From Spirulina sp. (GTDB lineage: Bacteria; Cyanobacteriota; Cyanobacteriia; Phormidesmidales; Phormidesmidaceae), in the NCBI GenBank assembly GCA_044070495.1, contig JBIPSI010000007.1, positions 96,001 through 160,000 of the forward strand: a DNA stretch of 64,000 nucleotides, written 5' to 3'. This document shows, piece after piece, positions 11,280 to 20,102 of this stretch. The translations under genes were made by a program, and so were the position numbers. The notes below the pieces were generated by a model. It was not told the origin of the DNA. It did no database searches and saw nothing but the letters and a program-made list of their open reading frames with translations. Positions within the stretch are counted from its first letter, which is position 1. Every line of letters starts with the position of its first letter.

Positions 11280-11984
11280 ATGGTAAGCGAGGGCTGGCAG
11301 GATCGGTTTAACCAGGTGGCGCAACCCCCACGGGAAGTGGGCTATCTCCAGCCAAGCGCAGCCCCCACGAGCTATCAACGGGTCTTTAGACGGCGATCTT
11401 GGTTCATCGGCCTGGGCCTGGGCCTGGGGCTGCTGCTGTCGGGCTGCGAAACCCTGGGGCTATCGGGATCATCCCCCGATGCCGATACGGAAGCGGGGAA
11501 TCAGTACGTGAGTCGTTCGGTACGGGGGAGTCGGTTAATGAGCCGCACCATGCCCGCCAGTTTGGGGCTGCGACGAGGCTGGCAAATGGCTCCACCCCAA
11601 TCGCTCCACCCCAACGCCGACCTGCAAGCCCACCACCCAGGACAGGGAATCTTTTTGGTGGTGCTGGGGGAAAGCAAGGCCAGCGTGATGCCAGGAACCT
11701 TGGAACAACAGGCCATGCAGTATCTTCAACTGATGCGAATGGGCTTTGACCAAGTGACGAGTCCAGAATCGCGCACGGGGGTAAGCCAGGTCGGCACCTA
11801 CCCAGCAGTGCAGTACGCCCTCCAAGCCAATGTGCGGGGGGAATCGGTGGCCTACCTCCATACCACCGTGGAAATGGGGGAGCACTACTACCAAGTGGTG
11901 ACCTGGACAAAGGCGGATCGCTACTCCTCCAATGCCGACGAAATGCGGGCGGTGGTGCAAGAATTTAGCCCCGATCAGCGTTGA
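11280..11984 (+). CDS. Hypothetical lipoprotein
   Basis: RRR followed by a hydrophobic stretch and LLSGC lipobox; start uncertain. Confidence 0.65.
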   Translation: MVSEGWQDRFNQVAQPPREVGYLQPSAAPTSYQRVFRRRSWFIGLGLGLGLLLSGCETLGLSGSSPDADTEAGNQYVSRSVRGSRLMSRTMPASLGLRRGWQMAPPQSLHPNADLQAHHPGQGIFLVVLGESKASVMPGTLEQQAMQYLQLMRMGFDQVTSPESRTGVSQVGTYPAVQYALQANVRGESVAYLHTTVEMGEHYYQVVTWTKADRYSSNADEMRAVVQEFSPDQR

Positions 11985-11996
11985 GCGTCCTCAGAT

Positions 11997-12024
11997 GAAA
12001 AAGCCCGCCGGGGAACCGACGGGT
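11997..12024 (-). terminator. Intrinsic terminator closing the nitrile hydratase operon
   Basis: GC-rich hairpin GCCCGCCGG-GGAA-CCGACGGGT with an A6 tract on + (U tract on -). Confidence 0.55.
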
Positions 12025-12062
12025 CAATAGCAAAGGATTAGGGGCGATTCGAGAATTAAAGA

Positions 12063-12710
12063 CTACCCTAAAATGGATGCCGAGAGGAAAGCTACACCAA
12101 TGCCTGAGAGAGTAAAACCCGCGAAACGTAGGTTAAGTGGCTTTACCTCACTACTTGCCCCTAGCTGCTTAGCCAACAGATAAGCACTAATAGAGATGAA
12201 CATCTGAATAGCAGAGAAACCTACTAAGTAAGCAATCAATGATGACATTTCTGCCCCAATGACAGCCTCTCCATACGCATAGCCATGGAACATGCCAGCC
12301 ATCGAAGCCAGGAGAATCATGGCTCCCGCAGGCAATGAGTTCTTGGCAGCTAGAAGCAAGCCAAATACCAAAACAGATGAAGCAATAAAGAATTCTGGTG
12401 CAGGCAAGTTAAGGTTAGACAAATGAATCCCTGTACCCAGAAGTGAAGCTAGAACAAACGCCACAGGAATGAACAAGCCTCGATTAAAGATAGCGGCTAG
12501 CAAACCAATGGTGATTACAAAGGCGAGGTGATCAAGACCAATCACTGGATGTCCAACACCAGAGAGAAATCCCTCCATCGCAGTTGTTGGAGAGTCCCCA
12601 CCAAATGGATGGTGAGCCAGGGCTGGGAAACATAGGGTTAACGAGGTAATAGCTACTAGACTGCTGATGATAATCTTCGGTCTCAAGTTAGAAAAAGACT
12701 GGATATGCAT
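12063..12710 (-). CDS. HupE/UreJ family Ni/Co transporter
   Basis: ALAHHPFGG, GFLSGVGHPVIGLDHL, FHGYAYG motifs; multiple TM segments. Confidence 0.9.
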   Translation of the reverse strand: MHIQSFSNLRPKIIISSLVAITSLTLCFPALAHHPFGGDSPTTAMEGFLSGVGHPVIGLDHLAFVITIGLLAAIFNRGLFIPVAFVLASLLGTGIHLSNLNLPAPEFFIASSVLVFGLLLAAKNSLPAGAMILLASMAGMFHGYAYGEAVIGAEMSSLIAYLVGFSAIQMFISISAYLLAKQLGASSEVKPLNLRFAGFTLSGIGVAFLSASILG

Positions 12711-12766
12711 GGTGGGTTAGTCCTAACGGTAGTTCTAGGTTTTACAGAAGTATCAAAAGGTAGCTA

Positions 12767-13156
12767 TCAGATTGCACTAGAGGAAGCATCAGAGAGAATA
12801 GGCTCATCATGGGCACTTGCACAATCTAATAAAGTAGATAACTTTGCCTCTAGCTCTGTCTTATCTACAAGACCTGTATCTATGACAAGCTTTTCTAAAA
12901 CGGTATACCAGCGCTGGTAGTAGTCCCAGGTTGGATCGTCTAGATTATGCTCTGACTCCCACTCATCAATGGTGGAAATTAAATTTTTACGAAAGTCTTC
13001 CCACTCGTAATGCCCTTTTTTAGATAGGGCTATGGCAAGCGCAAAGGCAACCTGTTCCCAACTTCGCTTGAAAGCAAGACTTCCATTCTCTCGAGGAGGA
13101 GATTCTTCACTGCCCATTAAGCTAGAAGCAGCAAAATGTTCAAATCGGGTAAACAT
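12767..13156 (-). CDS. Nitrile hydratase accessory/activator protein (P14K-like)
   Basis: PPRENGSLAFKRSWEQVAFALAIAL...YEWEDFR...YYQRWYTVLEKL; directly after the alpha subunit; start at MFTRF. Confidence 0.85.
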   Translation of the reverse strand: MFTRFEHFAASSLMGSEESPPRENGSLAFKRSWEQVAFALAIALSKKGHYEWEDFRKNLISTIDEWESEHNLDDPTWDYYQRWYTVLEKLVIDTGLVDKTELEAKLSTLLDCASAHDEPILSDASSSAI

Positions 13157-13271
13157 GGGAAATAAACCTTCTCCCTGGCTAAAGTAAAGCTTGTCCAAGC
13201 CCAGCGGCATAGTTTTAGCTAGGGGAAAATTTCAATCCCTAAGCTGGACTTGGAAAAAAGTTCGTAACTTT

Positions 13272-13901
13272 CTAAGGAATAGCTACTGTAGCCACACCCA
13301 TCATGGATTCTGGGGTAACAAGGTTGGCCAAATCATCTTCACTCATATGCTCGGTACCAGCAGGTCGTTCTGGCAGCACCCACCAGCGAATCTGTCCGCT
13401 ACTATCCCAAACTCGAACCTCGATAGAATCATCTAGCTCAAGGCCAAACTCCTTTAGAACCTTGCGAGGCTCACGGGCCGCTCTAGATCTGAAGGTTGGA
13501 TCTTTATACCAGTAGGGAGGTAAACCTAACGTCGGCCAAGGGTAGCAGGAACATAGGGTGCAGATGATCAAGTTATGAACAGACGAGGTATTCTCAGCTA
13601 CTCGCATGTGTTCACCTTCCGCACCAGACATGCCAGTTGTCATGCCCATCGCGTCACAGGCCGCATTGCAATCTTTGATTAAAAGCTCCTTGAACTCCGG
13701 ATCAACCCATGCCTTTGCGACCAATTTAGCCCCGTTAAACGGCCCCATCTTGGACTCGAAATATTCCAGCACCTTATTGACAGTTTCACTACCAATAATG
13801 CCTTTTTCAATCAACAAAGCTTCGAGTGCTCTAACCTTTGCAGCACTTTCTAGCTCACGATTGGGACTATAGTTAAAGATCTCATCACCAGGAATAGACA
13901 T
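13272..13901 (-). CDS. nthA: Nitrile hydratase alpha subunit, cobalt type
   Basis: GAKLVAKAWVDPEFK; metal motif CTLCSCYPWP (Thr/Tyr = Co-type); LGLPPYWYK; REPRKVL. Confidence 0.93.
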   Translation of the reverse strand: MSIPGDEIFNYSPNRELESAAKVRALEALLIEKGIIGSETVNKVLEYFESKMGPFNGAKLVAKAWVDPEFKELLIKDCNAACDAMGMTTGMSGAEGEHMRVAENTSSVHNLIICTLCSCYPWPTLGLPPYWYKDPTFRSRAAREPRKVLKEFGLELDDSIEVRVWDSSGQIRWWVLPERPAGTEHMSEDDLANLVTPESMMGVATVAIP

Positions 13902-13934
13902 CGGTATCTCACCTCACTTCAAAAAATTCTAGGT

Positions 13935-14681
13935 CTAGGCTGCATCGAGATAGATCTCGAAAATGTCGGCGTAAAAAGTAGATCCAGGTTCAGCGAGATC
14001 TTCACCCCAGATTTCCTTAGGATCAAAGCGGACGCTATAGCTGGGCTGGGCTGGGCCTAATCCATCAGAGGGGCCAGGAAAGTAGGCATAGCACCCTTCA
14101 TAAACGAGGTCAATAACTCCGGTCTTACCACGCAAATGCCCTGGCAGTCGAGTATGTTCAACCACTGGCATATCCTTGACCACTACAGTCTCACCTACGG
14201 AGAACTTTGGCTGAATATTGACGTCTCGCTTCGGAGAGTCACCCAGTTCTAAGTACTTGATGACTTGCTCATCAATAGCGGCAATTTCCTTCTGAGGAAG
14301 TGGGAAGGGGTCAACGTTCCCCTCTTTCAGATAAAAACTGATTTTCTGATCCAGTTCTTCTTGGGAAATATACCCTTTCTCAACAAAGAAGCCAGAGATA
14401 CCACCTAACCACTTTTCGTAGTATCGAAATTTGAAGTAGTCGAAGGGGTTCATGGCTTCTGCCCCTCGCCGCAAATCAGCCCAAGTCCAGATATCCTTAA
14501 AGGTTGTAGGAACCTGCTCAATGGGATAATTAGGTAATGCATCCTTGAGGTGAGCACTTAAACCCATCATGGCTGTATGAATGCCGAAGATGCGCTTTTC
14601 CCATTGCTCAACAAATACTTTCTTCTGAAAGTCTACGGGGCCAAGTCCTTCTAGGCTGCCTAGAGAATGCTGTAATTTCAT
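13935..14681 (-). CDS. nthB: Nitrile hydratase beta subunit (divergent N-terminus)
   Basis: EGLGPV...FVEQWEKRIFG, LRRGAEAM...YYEKW, HTRLPGHLRGKTGVI, YSVRF...EIWG, DIFEIYL. Confidence 0.9.
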   Translation of the reverse strand: MKLQHSLGSLEGLGPVDFQKKVFVEQWEKRIFGIHTAMMGLSAHLKDALPNYPIEQVPTTFKDIWTWADLRRGAEAMNPFDYFKFRYYEKWLGGISGFFVEKGYISQEELDQKISFYLKEGNVDPFPLPQKEIAAIDEQVIKYLELGDSPKRDVNIQPKFSVGETVVVKDMPVVEHTRLPGHLRGKTGVIDLVYEGCYAYFPGPSDGLGPAQPSYSVRFDPKEIWGEDLAEPGSTFYADIFEIYLDAA

Positions 14682-14731
14682 AAACTCTTTAGCTCCATTT
14701 CACTGATTTCAAGATTTGAATTGTGCTGATT

Positions 14732-15262
14732 TTAGATGTCCTTAGCGGTTTCCCTAGCCGCCTCAACGACAGCAGGAGTTGTCGTCATCGCTTTGCCCCA
14801 AGCTTCGGAAAGATAGCCAAAGATGTTTCCTAGAATCATGGCTGCAATAGCAATTAAAACTGGGTTATTGGGTAAGGGAGCTGTCACCGATAAGCCTGTC
14901 ACGGCAACAGTACCAACGGTTTGTGAAAAACCCCACACAATGGCAGGAGTAATACCGTGGGTGAAAGGAAGCTTTGAGGCCTGCACCATGCCAGCGCTAC
15001 CAATACCAACACAAATGGCGGCAACGAGGGGACTCGGCCCAATTAGATCAATGGCCAATAAAGAAAGAGCTGCAATGATAATCCCCGTAATATTACAGGA
15101 AACAGATTTAGTAAATCCTCGAACGCCACCCCCAACGATAAAAAAGGAGGCCCAGGCCGTGAAGGTAACCCAAACGGGTACAGGGATGACAGTTGCCGTC
15201 AAAAATACATCTACACCGCCAAGAACACCGATGCTAATACTCAGGGCTTCGGACTGTTTCAT
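14732..15262 (-). CDS. DUF1097 family membrane protein
   Basis: Hydrophobic 176 aa; PVWVTFTAWASFF..GGG, MILGNIFGYLSE. Confidence 0.75.
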   Translation of the reverse strand: MKQSEALSISIGVLGGVDVFLTATVIPVPVWVTFTAWASFFIVGGGVRGFTKSVSCNITGIIIAALSLLAIDLIGPSPLVAAICVGIGSAGMVQASKLPFTHGITPAIVWGFSQTVGTVAVTGLSVTAPLPNNPVLIAIAAMILGNIFGYLSEAWGKAMTTTPAVVEAARETAKDI

Positions 15263-15288
15263 AATAGGCTTGGCTCCGAATTATTTGG

Positions 15289-16245
15289 TCACATTAAGCA
15301 ATCATGAAAACCGCGCCGCAACTCATCTTCATTTAGGTTGCGACCAATAAAGACCAGTTCATTCCGTCGAGTTTCCCCAGGCTGCCAGGGACGACCTGGG
15401 CGACCATCTAGGGTCATATGAACTCCCTGAAAAACAAACCTTCGATCTTCATAGTCCATGTCGAGGATGCCTTTCATCCGAAAAATATCAGCCCCTCGCT
15501 CTTGCACCAGTTGATAAAGCCAGCGGTTGAATTTATCACCATTGACAACCCCACCTTCTTGCATGGCTACTGAGGCAACGGTCTCATCATGCTCGTGGGC
15601 ATCTTCGTCTAGAAACTCTGGATCGACACTGAGAGCATTCTTCAGATCAAAAGCTCCAACTCCTAACACAGAATCTAGGCTAATTTCACAGTTTTGGGTC
15701 TGATGAATTTTGGCGATTACATTCATCTGTCGAATTCTCTGCTCCAGTTCTTCCAGAATTGGGGGAGAGACTAAATCAACTTTGTTTAGTAAAATGACAT
15801 CGGCAAAAGCAATTTGCTCTTGGGCTTCACTGCTATCCCAATGCTCCCAGATATATTTAGCGTCAACAACGGTGACGATGGCATCTAGAAGAAGCCGTGA
15901 TCGCATGACTTCATCCACAAAAAAAGACTGAATGACAGGGGCAGGATCAGCTAGGCCCGTCGTTTCAATCATGAGGTAGTCAAAATCCTCAGAGCGCTCC
16001 ATCAAGCTACTAATGATGCGAATCAAATCACTTCGCACTGTGCAGCAAATGCAGCCATTATTCATTTCAAGAATTTCTTCGTCAGCACCTATCACAAGCT
16101 GGTTATCGATGCCAACTTCGCCAAATTCATTGACAATCACAGCAATTCGCTTGCCGTGCTGTGCAGTAAGAATATAGTTCAGTAATGTGGTCTTGCCTGC
16201 ACCTAGATATCCAGTCAGTACCGTGGTAGGAATCTGATTCTGCAA
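15289..16245 (-). CDS. COG0523/CobW-family G3E GTPase metallochaperone
   Basis: [37 protein letters not shown], CobW_C tail (FRMKG...FQGVH...LVFIGR); TTG start after GAGAGG. Confidence 0.92.
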
Positions 16246-16288
16246 AGATGACAGCCTCTCTTATTTTTTCCTTATTTTGTATAAGAGG

Positions 16289-16330
16289 AAAATAAGGGAG
16301 GATGAAAATGATAACTGTATATTAGGCGAC
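16289..16330 (-). promoter_or_regulatory. Class II NtcA-activated promoter of the nitrile hydratase operon
   Basis: Minus strand reads TGTC-GCCTAATA-TAC, exactly 22 nt, then TATTTT (TAN3T). Confidence 0.65.
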
Positions 16331-16445
16331 ACATTGAGAACTTAAAAACGTTGGTCGATCTACTTATTGATGCTCTATGGCCTAGACATCGCCTTTAGTC
16401 AATGCCCCCAAAATCCCTAAGTAATTGCAACGACAGAGAGGACGA

Positions 16446-16570
16446 TCAATTCTGGTGGACCAGGGTTATCATCCGGCCATGTTGCGAGAGGCCCTTGAAC
16501 CGGACTATCCGCAGCTGATGCGAAAGATTAAGTTCGAGCGGTCGCTGAAGCCTTCAAAAGCCGAAGTTGA
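16446..16570 (+). pseudogene. IS5-family transposase internal fragment
   Basis: ILVDQGYHPAMLREALEPDYPQLMRKIKFERSLKPSKAE resembles the D-x-GY catalytic region of cyanobacterial IS5 transposases (from memory). Confidence 0.6.
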
Positions 16571-16753
16571 GAGACCCCTGCCTCATACCACCACGCATCT
16601 CAATCTATGCTTCGTCAGGCTCATATTCAAATGACTGGCGGCTCCTACCTAGGGATCTCAAATGGGTTCCATAGCTATCTCTGCCTTCTCTGGGGTCTAC
16701 CTGTCGCCCATCTGTGGCCTAATAGAAAGGGACAAAACGCGCAGAAGGAGATC

Positions 16754-17392
16754 GTGGGCGTGAGTAAGCAGTGGCTCGGTGGCCTCAACACAATCGGTAG
16801 AGATGGCCTGCGGCCAAGGCTGGAATCCTGGTGTCGGGGCCTCTGGCAAGGGGTGATGGTTCTGAGCTTGGTCGCTCTATTGTGGATTGGCCTCGGTGGG
16901 CAACCCAGCGCCCAGGCAGGGCTGACCGACGACAATTTCGATGGCAATATCTTTGCCCTCTATGCCGGAAATGGCTCTCTAGTACCGCCCAAGGTCTCCC
17001 TAGAGCAGTCTTTGAAGTACAACAAACCCGCCATTGTTGTGATCTACGTGGACGACAGCAGCGACTGCAAACTGTTCTCCTCCACCATTTCCCAACTGCA
17101 AGCCCCCTACGGTCGGGTGGCCAACTTCATCCCGGTCATGGCCGATGCTATCCCGGTCAAGGCTGAGTATGCCCCTAACGAACCGGGCTACTATTTCAAA
17201 AATGCCGTCCCCCAAACCCTGGTGTTCGATGCAGAGGGCAACCTGCGCTTCAACGAAACGGGAACCGTCAGCTACGAAGCCATTGACGACGTAATGCGAG
17301 AGGTCTTTGACCTGCTACCCCGCACCGAGTCTGTAGAACTGCGCCGCCGCCCCGTCAACGAAGTCAACGTAGAACTCGTCCCCGCCGATTAA
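16754..17392 (+). CDS. Thioredoxin-like thylakoid protein (photosystem I accumulation factor family)
   Basis: DDNFDGNIFALYAGNGSLVPP, YVDDSSDCK, VFDLLPRTESVEL; GTG start after AAGGAG (start uncertain). Confidence 0.75.
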   Translation: MGVSKQWLGGLNTIGRDGLRPRLESWCRGLWQGVMVLSLVALLWIGLGGQPSAQAGLTDDNFDGNIFALYAGNGSLVPPKVSLEQSLKYNKPAIVVIYVDDSSDCKLFSSTISQLQAPYGRVANFIPVMADAIPVKAEYAPNEPGYYFKNAVPQTLVFDAEGNLRFNETGTVSYEAIDDVMREVFDLLPRTESVELRRRPVNEVNVELVPAD

Positions 17393-17415
17393 GCGCTCCA
17401 TCGTAGGGCGCACAA

Positions 17416-17437
17416 CGCCAAGGCGAGACTGCGTCAA
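17416..17437 (+). mobile_element. 22-nt double-hairpin micro-insertion inside a GTAG-type REP
   Basis: CGCC-AA-GGCG A GAC-TGC-GTC AA followed by CG, within GTAGGGCG...GCCCTAC. Confidence 0.45.
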
Positions 17438-17524
17438 CGCGAAGCCATGCCCTACCCAGAGACTTCGCTAGTGTGCCACTAGCCCCGACTCCCAAGGGGC
17501 GGATGGGTCGCGTTTACCTAATCC

Positions 17525-18691
17525 CTAGGCTAACAGGAGCGAGACGCCCAATAATGCCCCTGGGATGATGAAAAACACGCCCAAAATATAGGCCAAGGCC
17601 CACCCTTTATTGTCGGTAGCCATTGTGGCCAGCTTTTGTGAACCTTCGTAGGGAATGCGATATAGAAAGGGCACAAAGAAAATCAAAATGGCGGCCAACA
17701 GGTTAAACAGCAAGTGCACCATGGCAATTTGCAAGGCGGGTAAGGCCGTTGGCCCGCTGACGCTGGTGGCCGCTAGCAGGGATGTCACGGTCGTACCAAT
17801 GTTGGCCCCAATGGTAAAGGGATAGATCTGGGCTAGGGTTAAAACGCCCAACCCAGCCAGAGGCACCATCAAGCTCGTTGTGGTTGAGGACGACTGTACC
17901 AGAATGGTGATGAGAATGCCCGATAACACTCCAGACACTGGCCCCCGGCCAATTGCTGTGTTCATAATTTCCTTGGCTTTTCCCACCATCAAGCGCTTCA
18001 TCACTTTGCCCAGGAAATAAATGGAGAAGAAAATTAACCCCATGCCAATCAGAATCTGCAAGATAGCACTATAGGGTTCGGGGAGAAGAGAACTGGTAAT
18101 ATTGCGAATCAAATCCCTTAGAGGTCGAATTAATGCACCCACAAAATCAAGCTCATCAACACTGAGATCTGAATCGCCAACAAAAAGTCCTGCCAATGGC
18201 TTGCTCAGCCGTTCCAGCAAGCCAAACATCATTTCTAGGGGAAAGAAAATGGCCACAGCAAGCAAATTGAACAAGTCCAGCACTGTGGCAGCAGAAAAGG
18301 CTAGCTTGAACTCATCTTTGTTCTTAATGTGTCCGAGGCTAACCAGGGTATTGGTCACCGAGGTTCCCAAGTTTGCCCCCATGATCATGGGAATAGCAAT
18401 GGTCACGGGTAAGCCACCCGCCACCAGGGAAACGATGATGGAGGTTGTTGTACTAGAGGACTGCACAAGTGCCGTTGAAATAATCCCTACCATCAAGCCT
18501 AGAAAAGGGTTGGTGGCAAAGGTGAATAGATACTCCGCCTCATCGCCAACGGCGGCTCGAAAGCCTCGACTGATGACGCTTACGGCAACGATCAGCAGAT
18601 AAAGAAGAACAAGGACAGAAATCCAACCAATCGTTTGCTGTCGAGGACTAAGGTTTTCTGATTCGTGTTTTGTGAGAGGCTTTGAAGTCAC
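17525..18691 (-). CDS. Na+/phosphate cotransporter (NptA/SLC34-like)
   Basis: Two LVQSSSTTTS and GAN(L/I)GT repeats. Confidence 0.9.
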   Translation of the reverse strand: MTSKPLTKHESENLSPRQQTIGWISVLVLLYLLIVAVSVISRGFRAAVGDEAEYLFTFATNPFLGLMVGIISTALVQSSSTTTSIIVSLVAGGLPVTIAIPMIMGANLGTSVTNTLVSLGHIKNKDEFKLAFSAATVLDLFNLLAVAIFFPLEMMFGLLERLSKPLAGLFVGDSDLSVDELDFVGALIRPLRDLIRNITSSLLPEPYSAILQILIGMGLIFFSIYFLGKVMKRLMVGKAKEIMNTAIGRGPVSGVLSGILITILVQSSSTTTSLMVPLAGLGVLTLAQIYPFTIGANIGTTVTSLLAATSVSGPTALPALQIAMVHLLFNLLAAILIFFVPFLYRIPYEGSQKLATMATDNKGWALAYILGVFFIIPGALLGVSLLLA

Positions 18692-18950
18692 AGTATCAAC
18701 TCCTTAAAATATTTTTAGCCAACAACGTTAAACGTCGCTGACCTAGAACCCAATCAAAAATTTTCATCGAAGCATCAAAAATCAAAGCTATCAGTCAATC
18801 AATGACAGCTCCACTGACCTTCCGAATAACAGTGCTTAATCCCAAAAATCTTGACAATATCTTAGGAGCGGGATTGACTTAAACGAAATAGATTTTTTGG
18901 AAATCTGAGCCTAGAGTACTATCAACTAAAATCCGAGACAACTAGCGAAA

Positions 18951-18980
18951 TAAAATCTGAACTTAATCTATAGTTAACCT
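18951..18980 (+). promoter_or_regulatory. Candidate Pho box (SphR/PhoB): three 8-mers at 11-bp spacing
   Basis: TAAAATCT-gaa-CTTAATCT-ata-GTTAACCT vs cyanobacterial PyTTAAPyPy(T/A); upstream of the Na/Pi transporter but in opposite orientation. Confidence 0.4.
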
Positions 18981-19089
18981 GCGAGATCAGGCCTTTCACT
19001 TAGCAAGTAGAGTGAGTCATTATAGGAAACTGATATGAAAAGTTGGCGAGAAGCTAATGTGACAAAATAGATATTTCACTGCTCGATCA

Positions 19090-19219
19090 CTGGTTGACTG
19101 ACAAAAGATCCTGCGCCGGACGCGGAAACCGCGCCCCTACAAGATTTGGATAATGTAGGGGTCAGGTCTCCTGACCCTTTGGCGGATCTGGGTTCTCGCA
19201 AGTTTTGTCAGTCAACCAG
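19090..19219. mobile_element. 130-bp MITE (family B) with a 9-bp TSD
   Basis: TIR CTGGTTGACTGACAAAA / TTTTGTCAGTCAACCAG; GCTCGATCA duplicated on both sides; interior is an inverted GTAGGGG REP pair. Confidence 0.9.
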
Positions 19220-19379
19220 GCTCGATCATCGGACTTAATCTATGTTTAATGAGTCGTGGGTGCGTTCCAGTCTGCCTCTGGGTGGTGCAATAGTGGAATC
19301 TATCCGACAAAGCCAACAGAATCCAAGGCACAGTATGTTGTCCTTCGGGTCTTCTCTAGTCCACCTAATCGACTGAGCG

Positions 19380-20102
19380 ATGCAGCGGATTATTATCCAG
19401 CCCGACCAAATTCAGGACCATCACCTCACCCTTACCGCCGATCAGCAGCATTACCTCCATCGAGTGCTGCGGCTGGTGGCGGGGGATCGGTTTATGGCCC
19501 TGGATGGTCAAGGTCAACAGTGGGTGGCGACGTTGGGTAAGGATCCTGGATTCGCCCACCTCGCCCCCTTGGCAACGGCTGCCCCTGTTCTGCCAAACGT
19601 CACCCTAGCCATCGCGCTCCCCAAGGGCAGCGGCTTTGACGATGTGGTGCGCCAAACCACCGAGATCGGCGTGGACACCCTACAACCGTTGATTACCCAG
19701 CGCACCCTGCACCAGCCCAACCTCAAAAAGCTGGAACGCTGGCAGCGCATTGCCGCCGAAGCCACCGAACAATGCGAGCGTCCCAACCTGCCGAACCTTC
19801 AGTCACCCATGCCCTGGGCCGACTACCTGCGCCAAGACCTGCCCCCCCAGCGCTGGATCTGCCTTGCCCGTGGAGAATCCCAGCCCTTACTCACCGTCGC
19901 CCAGGCTAGCGATCCCAACCTCGGCACCGTGATCGCCATCGGGCCAGAGGGGGGCTGGACAGAGGCCGAAATCACTGCCGCCCTCGCCGCCGGATTTCAG
20001 CCCGCTTCCCTAGGGCCAACGGTGCTCCGGGCCGTGACTGCCCCCATGGTGGCCCTGGCCCTGGCCCTGGCTGGCCTTGATTCAGGGAATCCGCAGCGGT
20101 AA
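19380..20102 (+). CDS. rsmE: 16S rRNA m3U1498 methyltransferase RsmE
   Basis: HYLHRVLRL, EATEQCER, IAIGPEGGW, LGPTVLRAVTA. Confidence 0.93.
   Translation: MQRIIIQPDQIQDHHLTLTADQQHYLHRVLRLVAGDRFMALDGQGQQWVATLGKDPGFAHLAPLATAAPVLPNVTLAIALPKGSGFDDVVRQTTEIGVDTLQPLITQRTLHQPNLKKLERWQRIAAEATEQCERPNLPNLQSPMPWADYLRQDLPPQRWICLARGESQPLLTVAQASDPNLGTVIAIGPEGGWTEAEITAALAAGFQPASLGPTVLRAVTAPMVALALALAGLDSGNPQR

Follow-up and report, generated by a model that had tools for sequence, protein, structure and literature searches.

An amidase-less cobalt nitrile hydratase operon with a DUF1097 partner and an NtcA-like promoter on a putatively inserted low-GC segment of a Spirulina genome

A six-gene block encoding a cobalt-type nitrile hydratase (NHase) was analysed in a 64,000-nucleotide stretch of the Spirulina sp. 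genome (assembly GCA_044070495.1, contig JBIPSI010000007.1, positions 96,001 to 160,000 of the forward strand), which is referred to below as the window and from whose first letter all positions are counted. The best overall explanation, considered fairly likely, is that the block is a self-contained, horizontally inserted, nitrogen-regulated cobalt NHase operon with its own cobalt supply. Judged from sequence, the enzyme belongs to an undescribed, phylum-spanning subfamily whose hallmark is a DUF1097 membrane protein, joined in some members by a COG0523 GTPase. The type, fold and chemistry of the enzyme are already known, and it is the combination of genes that is undescribed. The genes, in the order of transcription, and the associated features are as follows.

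15289-16245, minus strand: COG0523 (CobW/YjiA-like) G3E GTPase with a GCICC motif (PF02492, 203 bits; PF07683, 88 bits)
14732-15262, minus strand: DUF1097 membrane protein (PF06496, 100 bits)
13935-14681, minus strand: NHase beta subunit of the distinct subfamily, 248 aa (TIGR03888, 213.7 bits, cut-off 152.2)
13272-13901, minus strand: NHase alpha subunit, cobalt type, with CTLCSCY (TIGR01323, 289.5 bits, cut-off 249.85; PF02979, 286 bits)
12767-13210, minus strand: NHase accessory protein of the self-subunit-swapping chaperone type (TIGR03889, 71.1 bits, cut-off 46)
12063-12710, minus strand: HupE/UreJ permease (PF04955, 136.4 bits, cut-off 23)
12004-12023, minus strand: intrinsic-terminator-like hairpin followed by a T-run (8 pairs, 7 of them G-C; 40 nt past the HupE stop)
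16317-16330, minus strand: NtcA-like site (GTC-N8-TAC), GTCGCCTAATATAC preceded by T and followed by A, from sequence inspection
16289-16294, minus strand: -10-like box TATTTT, 22 nt downstream of the NtcA-like site
12082-16784, no strand: extent of the inserted low-GC module, from relatives' contigs, GC content and flank adjacency

All six minus-strand open reading frames (ORFs) were intact and lay 26-61 nt apart, and their identities were assigned by Pfam and NCBIfam, in agreement with the co-oriented block described in a first-pass annotation made from the letters alone. The terminator placed there at the end of the operon was recovered as the 8-pair hairpin and T-run at 12023-12004, and the ORF list together with Pfam confirmed that no amidase, aldoxime dehydratase or local regulator lies within the block.

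The proposed cobalt NHase operon was likewise upheld, since the alpha, beta and accessory proteins all scored above their NCBIfam equivalog cut-offs. Cobalt and iron NHases can be told apart by the motifs CTLCSCY (Co) and CSLCSCT (Fe) (PMC2667541, PMC2770081), and the translated alpha subunit was full length and carried the cobalt-type CTLCSCY. Alpha aligned over nearly its full length with solved cobalt NHases (E 5e-76 to 1e-66). For beta, the best match to a solved chain reached just E 1.5e-26, the first ~67 residues barely aligned, and an insertion of ~20 residues was located at about residues 40-67, while its arginines and its tyrosine/tryptophan (YY..W) positions lined up with those of 2DPP_B. 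Members of its own clade matched beta at E 5e-154 to 1e-88 with 56-91% identity. Taken together, the enzyme is best assigned to a true cobalt-type NHase of a distinct, widely distributed subfamily. With the solved enzymes of Bacillus smithii (1V29), Bacillus sp. RAPc8 (2DPP) and Pseudonocardia thermophila (1IRE) it has in common an alpha subunit with CTLCSCY, the two-subunit alpha/beta organization and the beta-alpha-accessory gene order; unlike them, it has a remote beta subunit and no adjacent amidase, and the DUF1097 and COG0523 genes are added.

To place the operon, species-representative genomes were scanned, which yielded 214 beta relatives, and the best 80 loci (from cyanobacteria, mycobacteria, Pseudomonas and others) were analysed. 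The rows of the beta tree were these related loci and the window, with biochemically characterised NHases not among them. The window fell within a 7-row group (SH-aLRT 99) that also comprised an uncultured bin and five rows titled as cyanobacteria: a marine metagenome-assembled genome, a Prochlorococcus single-cell genome, Leptolyngbya sp. PCC 6406 (L008), Nodosilinea and Laspinema. Other cyanobacteria, of the Pleurocapsales, clustered with gamma-proteobacteria in a second group, and 50 rows were mycobacteria or other actinobacteria. Full-length NHase alpha was rare among cyanobacteria, being present in 6 of 401 species genomes, in addition to one broken copy. Gene linkage across the 80 loci was as follows.

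NHase alpha beside beta: 80 of 80 loci
Accessory protein beside NHase: 75 of 80
DUF1097 directly upstream of beta: 64 of 80
COG0523 beside NHase: 29 of 80, and 0 of the 50 actinobacterial loci
HupE beside NHase: 13 of 80
CbtA beside NHase: 15 of 80
CbiM beside NHase: 5 of 80
NicO beside NHase: 4 of 80
AraC/DJ-1-type regulator beside NHase (mycobacteria, Pseudomonas): 32 of 80

Amidases were searched for up to 8 kb on each side of these loci with eight seeds (four amidase-signature proteins, one AmiF, one nitrilase and two FmdA). Amidase-like ORFs were detected in just five of the 80 loci, comprising four amidase-signature ORFs, all from a single mycobacterial subgroup, and a CN-hydrolase at a distance of 5 kb, so the lack of an amidase is a trait of the subfamily and not of a single locus. 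The missing linked amidase reported for the window therefore extends clade-wide, with 76 of 80 related loci free of an amidase-signature gene, and the block does not have the amidase in the locus that characterizes a classical nitrile-catabolic operon. The survey of homologous neighbourhoods that had been suggested with the first reading thus recovered DUF1097 in 64 loci and an amidase-signature gene in four, and no consistent co-occurrence with an amidase. For the flanking genes, Pfam annotation covered 55 of the 93 ORF clusters recurring in at least two loci, namely the largest ones, with 412 single ORFs left out; among the annotated families recurring in at least 3 of the 80 loci, no urease, urea-carboxylase or guanylurea-hydrolase gene was found.

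Cobalt supply would be provided from within the operon. HupE/UreJ proteins have been tied to cobalt uptake in cyanobacteria (PMC4284471), and cobalt permeases adjoining cobalt NHases are known, with NiCoT permeases linked to these enzymes (PMC7689651). A Co/Ni transporter (HupE, CbtA, CbiM or NicO) was present in at least 37 of the 80 loci, and the variation of its type over the subfamily fits a common need for cobalt. As such, the HupE/UreJ protein of the window is a putative Co2+ importer, and the COG0523 GTPase a candidate cobalt metallochaperone. The latter scored below every NCBIfam equivalog cut-off. Like the Nha3-type proteins, it has the COG0523 fold with a CxCC motif (GCICC; PF02492 and PF07683). 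The NHase-linked COG0523 subfamily has been described as clustering solely with Fe-type enzymes (Haas et al., PMC2770081), whereas the partner in the window is Co-type. With the Fe-type NHases and their Nha3/P47K activators (PMC2770081, PMC9164220, PMC11672702), the operon shares a CxCC-bearing COG0523 GTPase beside the NHase subunits; unlike them, its NHase is Co-type (CTLCSCY, not CSLCSCT) and retains the Co-type accessory protein, a protein class for which self-subunit swapping has been described (PMC2770081). When the complex of alpha and the GTPase was predicted, the verdict was 'no answer' (score 0.00), which is evidence in neither direction.

Nitrogen control of the operon by NtcA is likely, as suggested by the promoter. 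The NtcA-like site lies at 16330-16317, 71 nt before the start codon. The pattern TGT-N10-ACA followed after 22-23 nt by TAN3T was shared by the window and all four of its subclade relatives (L007-L010), and beyond the site only L010 had upstream DNA still alignable with the window. Of the elements of a class II NtcA promoter, a GT-N10-AC core, a TAN3T -10 box ~22 nt further on and conservation in orthologous loci were thus present. The NtcA-type promoter claimed at first reading stands in that an NtcA-like site with a -10 box is conserved in the subclade, but not as an exact box, as GTAN8TAC is absent upstream. TGTN10ACA with its -10 box occurred at 28 sites on both strands of the 5.3-Mb genome, so that 0.0012 would be expected per 450 nt and the site in the window is much rarer than chance. 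The genes behind these 28 relaxed sites included urtA, a glutamine-type ABC transporter, modA and both divergent Nit1C promoters, and both amt genes of the genome had perfect boxes. Among the 14 related cyanobacterial loci, eight had a perfect GTAN8TAC within 450 nt upstream (background 0.09 per such interval; naive binomial p 7e-6, with kin not independent), and 11 had a strict or relaxed site. The 65 non-cyanobacterial loci contained a strict site in one case and a relaxed one in none, a weak control because most of them are GC-rich. In the long leaders of L007-L010, no riboswitch was detected at gathering scores.

Published expression data point in the same direction. In N-limited Arthrospira sp. 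PCC 8005, the NHase genes nthA1/nthB2 rise together with fmdA, urease and cyanase (PMC4509649), and nitrile use tracks nitrogen stress in marine Synechococcus proteomes (PMC13753778). Together with the conserved NtcA-type sites (5/5 in the subclade, 11/14 in cyanobacterial relatives), these reports support the nitrogen-scavenging role put forward for the operon. The Arthrospira NHase resembles that of the window in being cyanobacterial, rare in the phylum and induced with nitrogen-scavenging genes including a formamidase; DUF1097, COG0523 and an NtcA site go unmentioned in the portion of PMC4509649 available, and this NHase is not among the rows of the beta tree.

Among 401 cyanobacterial genomes, DUF1097 was found in three, adjoining NHase alpha each time. 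In an alignment of 32 sequences from five phyla, 27 columns were invariant, W, N, S and G/P positions inside predicted helices among them, and the AlphaFold (AF2) model (pLDDT 92) comprised six long helices and a short C-terminal helix. An ESM Atlas search with this protein returned one unnamed cluster alone (0.86), and no publication naming DUF1097 together with nitrile hydratase was found in the literature library searched. DUF1097 could let the nitrile or the amide cross the membrane, as a channel or as a carrier, to judge by its linkage and membrane nature, and the uptake function claimed in the first-pass annotation would depend solely on this protein.

The operon appears, from its composition and setting, to have been inserted horizontally, and it is very probably functional. 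GC content was 0.43-0.49 over the block and 0.56-0.62 in the flanks. The core value of 0.460, against 0.567 for the genome, was equalled or undercut in just 2.1% of genome windows (n=5039, 4.2 kb), which bears out the AT-richer island noted earlier. In the window, the block is flanked by a gene for a 234-aa protein (11280-11984) and by a gene for an slr1796-type thylakoid factor (~16910-17392). Flank adjacency was examined in two genomes of the same family (G264 and G346), in both of which the homologues of these two genes are neighbours separated by ~170-190 bp, whereas the NHase block is interposed between the two in the window. G264 has an NHase operon of its own, on a different contig. In addition, assembled contigs of relatives (~91-99% alike; three public runs) matched 12082-16784 and carried unlike sequence beyond both ends, and this interval was taken as the module. 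Two marks of a genomic island were hence found: the block is atypical in composition and is missing from this site in kin. Of the further marks, neither a mobility gene at the island nor flanking direct, inverted or terminal repeats at the block were found. A small ORF at 16425-16634 on the plus strand was considered as a transposase remnant and matched nothing in Pfam or NCBIfam, even at E 10; the 531 nt around it are single-copy in the genome, leaving that idea unsupported.

The fate of the amide product was considered at the level of the whole genome. The argument that the amide could not be hydrolysed does not hold beyond the locus, because an AmiF-type formamidase (580.8 bits, cut-off 406) and, besides GatA, three other amidase-signature proteins are encoded in the genome. 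Urease was also present, and FmdA was not found in this genome. A Nit6803-type nitrilase was located beside the MSMEG_0568 radical-SAM gene of the Nit1C set (L099; G000:C61:7300-11100), so the genome has two separate nitrile-hydrolysing systems, the NHase operon and the Nit6803 nitrilase/Nit1C genes. At another locus (L109; G000:C18:31600-34200), on a different contig from the nitrilase, homologues of MSMEG_0569 and MSMEG_0572/Sll0783 were observed with divergent NtcA-like sites. Aldoxime dehydratase (Oxd, PF13816) was not found in the genome, in a search for which the control genomes gave no match either. The window shares the alpha/beta NHase pair with the classical aldoxime-nitrile operons (Oxd, NHase and amidase), such as that of Pseudomonas sp. 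UW4 (PMC3596284); unlike them, it lacks a linked amidase, and the search of its genome for Oxd had no positive control.

Based on these results, a working sequence of events can be proposed. Under nitrogen scarcity, NtcA would activate the promoter at about 16330-16289. HupE would bring in Co2+, which the COG0523 GTPase, together with the accessory (self-subunit-swapping) protein, would hand to alpha, and the mature alpha/beta enzyme would turn a small nitrile into the amide. The DUF1097 protein, which has six helices and travels with the NHase across phyla, would most likely admit the nitrile or pass the amide through the membrane. The amide could then be converted to ammonium by an unlinked amidase, with the AmiF-type formamidase as the best candidate and the three amidase-signature enzymes next. 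A wider formulation is possible but tentative: that DUF1097 and the NHase subfamily form an obligate channel-enzyme pair from cyanobacteria to mycobacteria, that about a third of its members recruited COG0523 as a cobalt chaperone, and that the cyanobacterial module is an NtcA-wired scavenger of a small natural nitrile (hydrogen cyanide (HCN)/cyanohydrin, cyanamide or a short aliphatic nitrile).

Several results weigh against this picture. The NtcA-like site deviates from GTAN8TAC at one position, with C replacing the consensus A, and no NtcA-type site precedes the formamidase gene of the genome, nor a convincing one its other amidase genes. The sole evidence from RNA libraries consists of assembled contigs of relatives 91-99% alike (one metatranscriptome), which could include DNA and show neither transcription nor regulation. 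Regarding cobalt transfer, two recent reviews state that Co-type NHases need no COG0523/GTPase chaperone (PMC9164220, PMC11672702), and COG0523 is not essential to the subfamily, because all 50 actinobacterial loci are without it. Regarding DUF1097, a Foldseek search against the PDB gave nothing at E <= 0.001 (best E 0.18), and the best VIA-align match was the membrane domain of the ALMT1 anion channel (Z 9.7, root-mean-square deviation 6.0, 166 residues, 7% identity), a likeness that was discounted because its Z score lies in the noise range of unrelated helical bundles; the channel role is a guess because there is no clear structural relative. As for the amide, AmiF or FmdA was found in 4 of the 6 cyanobacterial genomes with intact NHase and in 33 of the 395 others (Fisher p 8e-4, uncorrected for kinship), an enrichment that is confounded by lineage and is only a lead, because NHase-free kin of two of these genomes also have a formamidase: AmiF in the case of the same-family genome G346, and FmdA in that of G101, a congener of G288. 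NHase was present without any formamidase in G174 and G023.

Alternative explanations concern both the substrate and the nature of the enzyme. The operon might serve a cyanide route, in which HCN or a spontaneous cyanohydrin is converted to formamide or a hydroxy-amide and split by an unlinked AmiF or FmdA, giving both detoxification and nitrogen gain. This is fairly unlikely: the AmiF formamidase above its cut-off, the formamidase enrichment, the joint rise of NHase and fmdA in N-limited Arthrospira (PMC4509649) and the retention in the genome of cyanide- and N-starvation-linked Nit1C genes with NtcA-type sites are all in its favour, whereas the confounding by lineage, the two NHase-bearing genomes without formamidase and the lack of an NtcA-like site upstream of AmiF count against it. 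Many NHases, moreover, are inhibited by HCN. An enzyme specialised for N-cyano compounds, which would turn cyanamide into urea or cyanoguanidine into guanylurea and would need no amidase since its product feeds urease, is quite improbable. Alpha/beta NHases do convert sulfoxaflor to a urea derivative by hydrating its cyanamide group (PMC13243292), which makes the cyanamide idea chemically possible, and the presence of urease, a urtA gene with an NtcA-type site, the lack of a linked amidase in 76 of the 80 loci and a guanidine-I riboswitch divergently beside the Prochlorococcus operon (L011) are in line with it. However, the annotated recurrent flanking families include no gene for urease, urea-carboxylase or guanylurea-hydrolase, amidases and a formamidase are encoded elsewhere in the genome, no sequence feature is tied to cyanamide or cyanoguanidine, and the gene downstream of the riboswitch in L011 is an unrelated ORF on the opposite strand.

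It is also conceivable, and unlikely, that the operon encodes an ordinary broad-range aliphatic/aromatic NHase on a passenger island, serving detoxification or carbon nutrition instead of nitrogen scavenging, and that the NtcA-like site is fortuitous or weak. The near full-length alignment of alpha with solved Bacillus-type broad-range cobalt NHases (E 5e-76), the deviation of the site from GTAN8TAC and the use of AraC/DJ-1-type regulators instead in mycobacterial and Pseudomonas relatives (32/80 loci) would agree with such an enzyme, but the site and its spacing are kept in every subclade locus, 11 of 14 cyanobacterial relatives have NtcA-type sites, compared with 1 of 65 non-cyanobacterial loci, and the motif is rare in the genome, where it otherwise marks nitrogen genes. 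Finally, alpha also matched the thiocyanate hydrolase gamma model TIGR03887 (187.6 bits) and NHLP leader models, as would be expected if the protein were a thiocyanate hydrolase or another enzyme of the NHase fold, such as a three-subunit toyocamycin-type NHase or the leader protein of a ribosomally synthesized and post-translationally modified peptide (RiPP). This is scarcely credible, since alpha falls short of the gamma cut-off (291.45) but passes that of the nitrile_alph model, alpha is full length including the metal motif, and beta is one unsplit 248-aa chain; on the gamma score and the unsplit beta, thiocyanate hydrolase was excluded.

The nitrogen-regulated cobalt NHase operon with its own cobalt supply remains the favoured explanation, and its layout can be compared with that of a further known system. 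The L-NHase cluster of Rhodococcus rhodochrous J1 consists of nhlBAE, the cobalt permease NhlF and an amidase. Both loci encode, besides a cobalt NHase, a small accessory chaperone and an importer dedicated to cobalt; unlike the J1 cluster, the window has a HupE/UreJ instead of a NiCoT importer, has no amidase and no local regulator, and adds a G3E GTPase, DUF1097 and NtcA-type control. The natural pairing of COG0523 with a Co-type NHase is one that current reviews say does not occur, and it bears on the allocation of scarce cobalt; if COG0523 does act as the cobalt chaperone, the view that Co-type NHases mature without a G3E GTPase would be overturned. Similarly, if the obligate pairing is real, it would assign a first function to DUF1097, and it offers a testable one for a family that includes Escherichia coli genes of unknown role. 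The natural role of NHases, which are used industrially, is poorly understood, and an amidase-less subfamily with a conserved membrane partner and cyanobacterial NtcA-type promoters may provide a handle on that role, namely nitrogen scavenging from small nitriles.

Some further observations were made in and around the operon. The TIGR03889 match in the accessory protein covers residues 47-120, the corresponding ORFs in related loci are 121-129 aa long, and the real start may lie downstream of 13210. An Rfam scan of 11500-19500 returned no family at E <= 1. Beyond the island, the ORF of the slr1796-type photosystem I accumulation factor spans 16607-17392 (261 aa) and its family match begins at residue 102, while the contigs of relatives diverge at 16784, so the true start is probably well downstream of 16607. 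Just past this homologue, a second low-GC stretch (0.41-0.49) at 17525-19250, with a gene of the Na/Pi-cotransporter family (17525-18691, minus strand) inside it, may be another acquired segment.

In the closest related loci, a second NHase with its beta split into N- and C-terminal ORFs, recalling three-subunit NHases, was observed at L008:1-1273, L009:109-1758 and L014:10840-11826. An SsuA/NMT1-family ABC transporter and a divergent AsnC regulator lay between the second NHase and the DUF1097 operon in L007, L008 and L009; the window contains none of these elements. In the Prochlorococcus single-cell genome, the intergenic region that the DUF1097-NHase operon shares with the divergent riboswitch ORF held three perfect GTAN8TAC boxes within ~260 nt. 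The guanidine-I riboswitch (L011:7037-7132, minus strand; 75.5 bits, cut-off 63) precedes a 200-aa ORF of no known function divergent from the operon, and the flanks of this locus also carry ZnuABC-like genes and a second, longer COG0523. Furthermore, a FGE-sulfatase/PvdO-like gene occupied the DUF1097 slot in nine sister-clade loci of Pleurocapsales and gamma-proteobacteria (e.g., L016:7000-7944 and L015:4187-5143), and it is conceivable that its product acts in cysteine oxidation of the NHase metal site.

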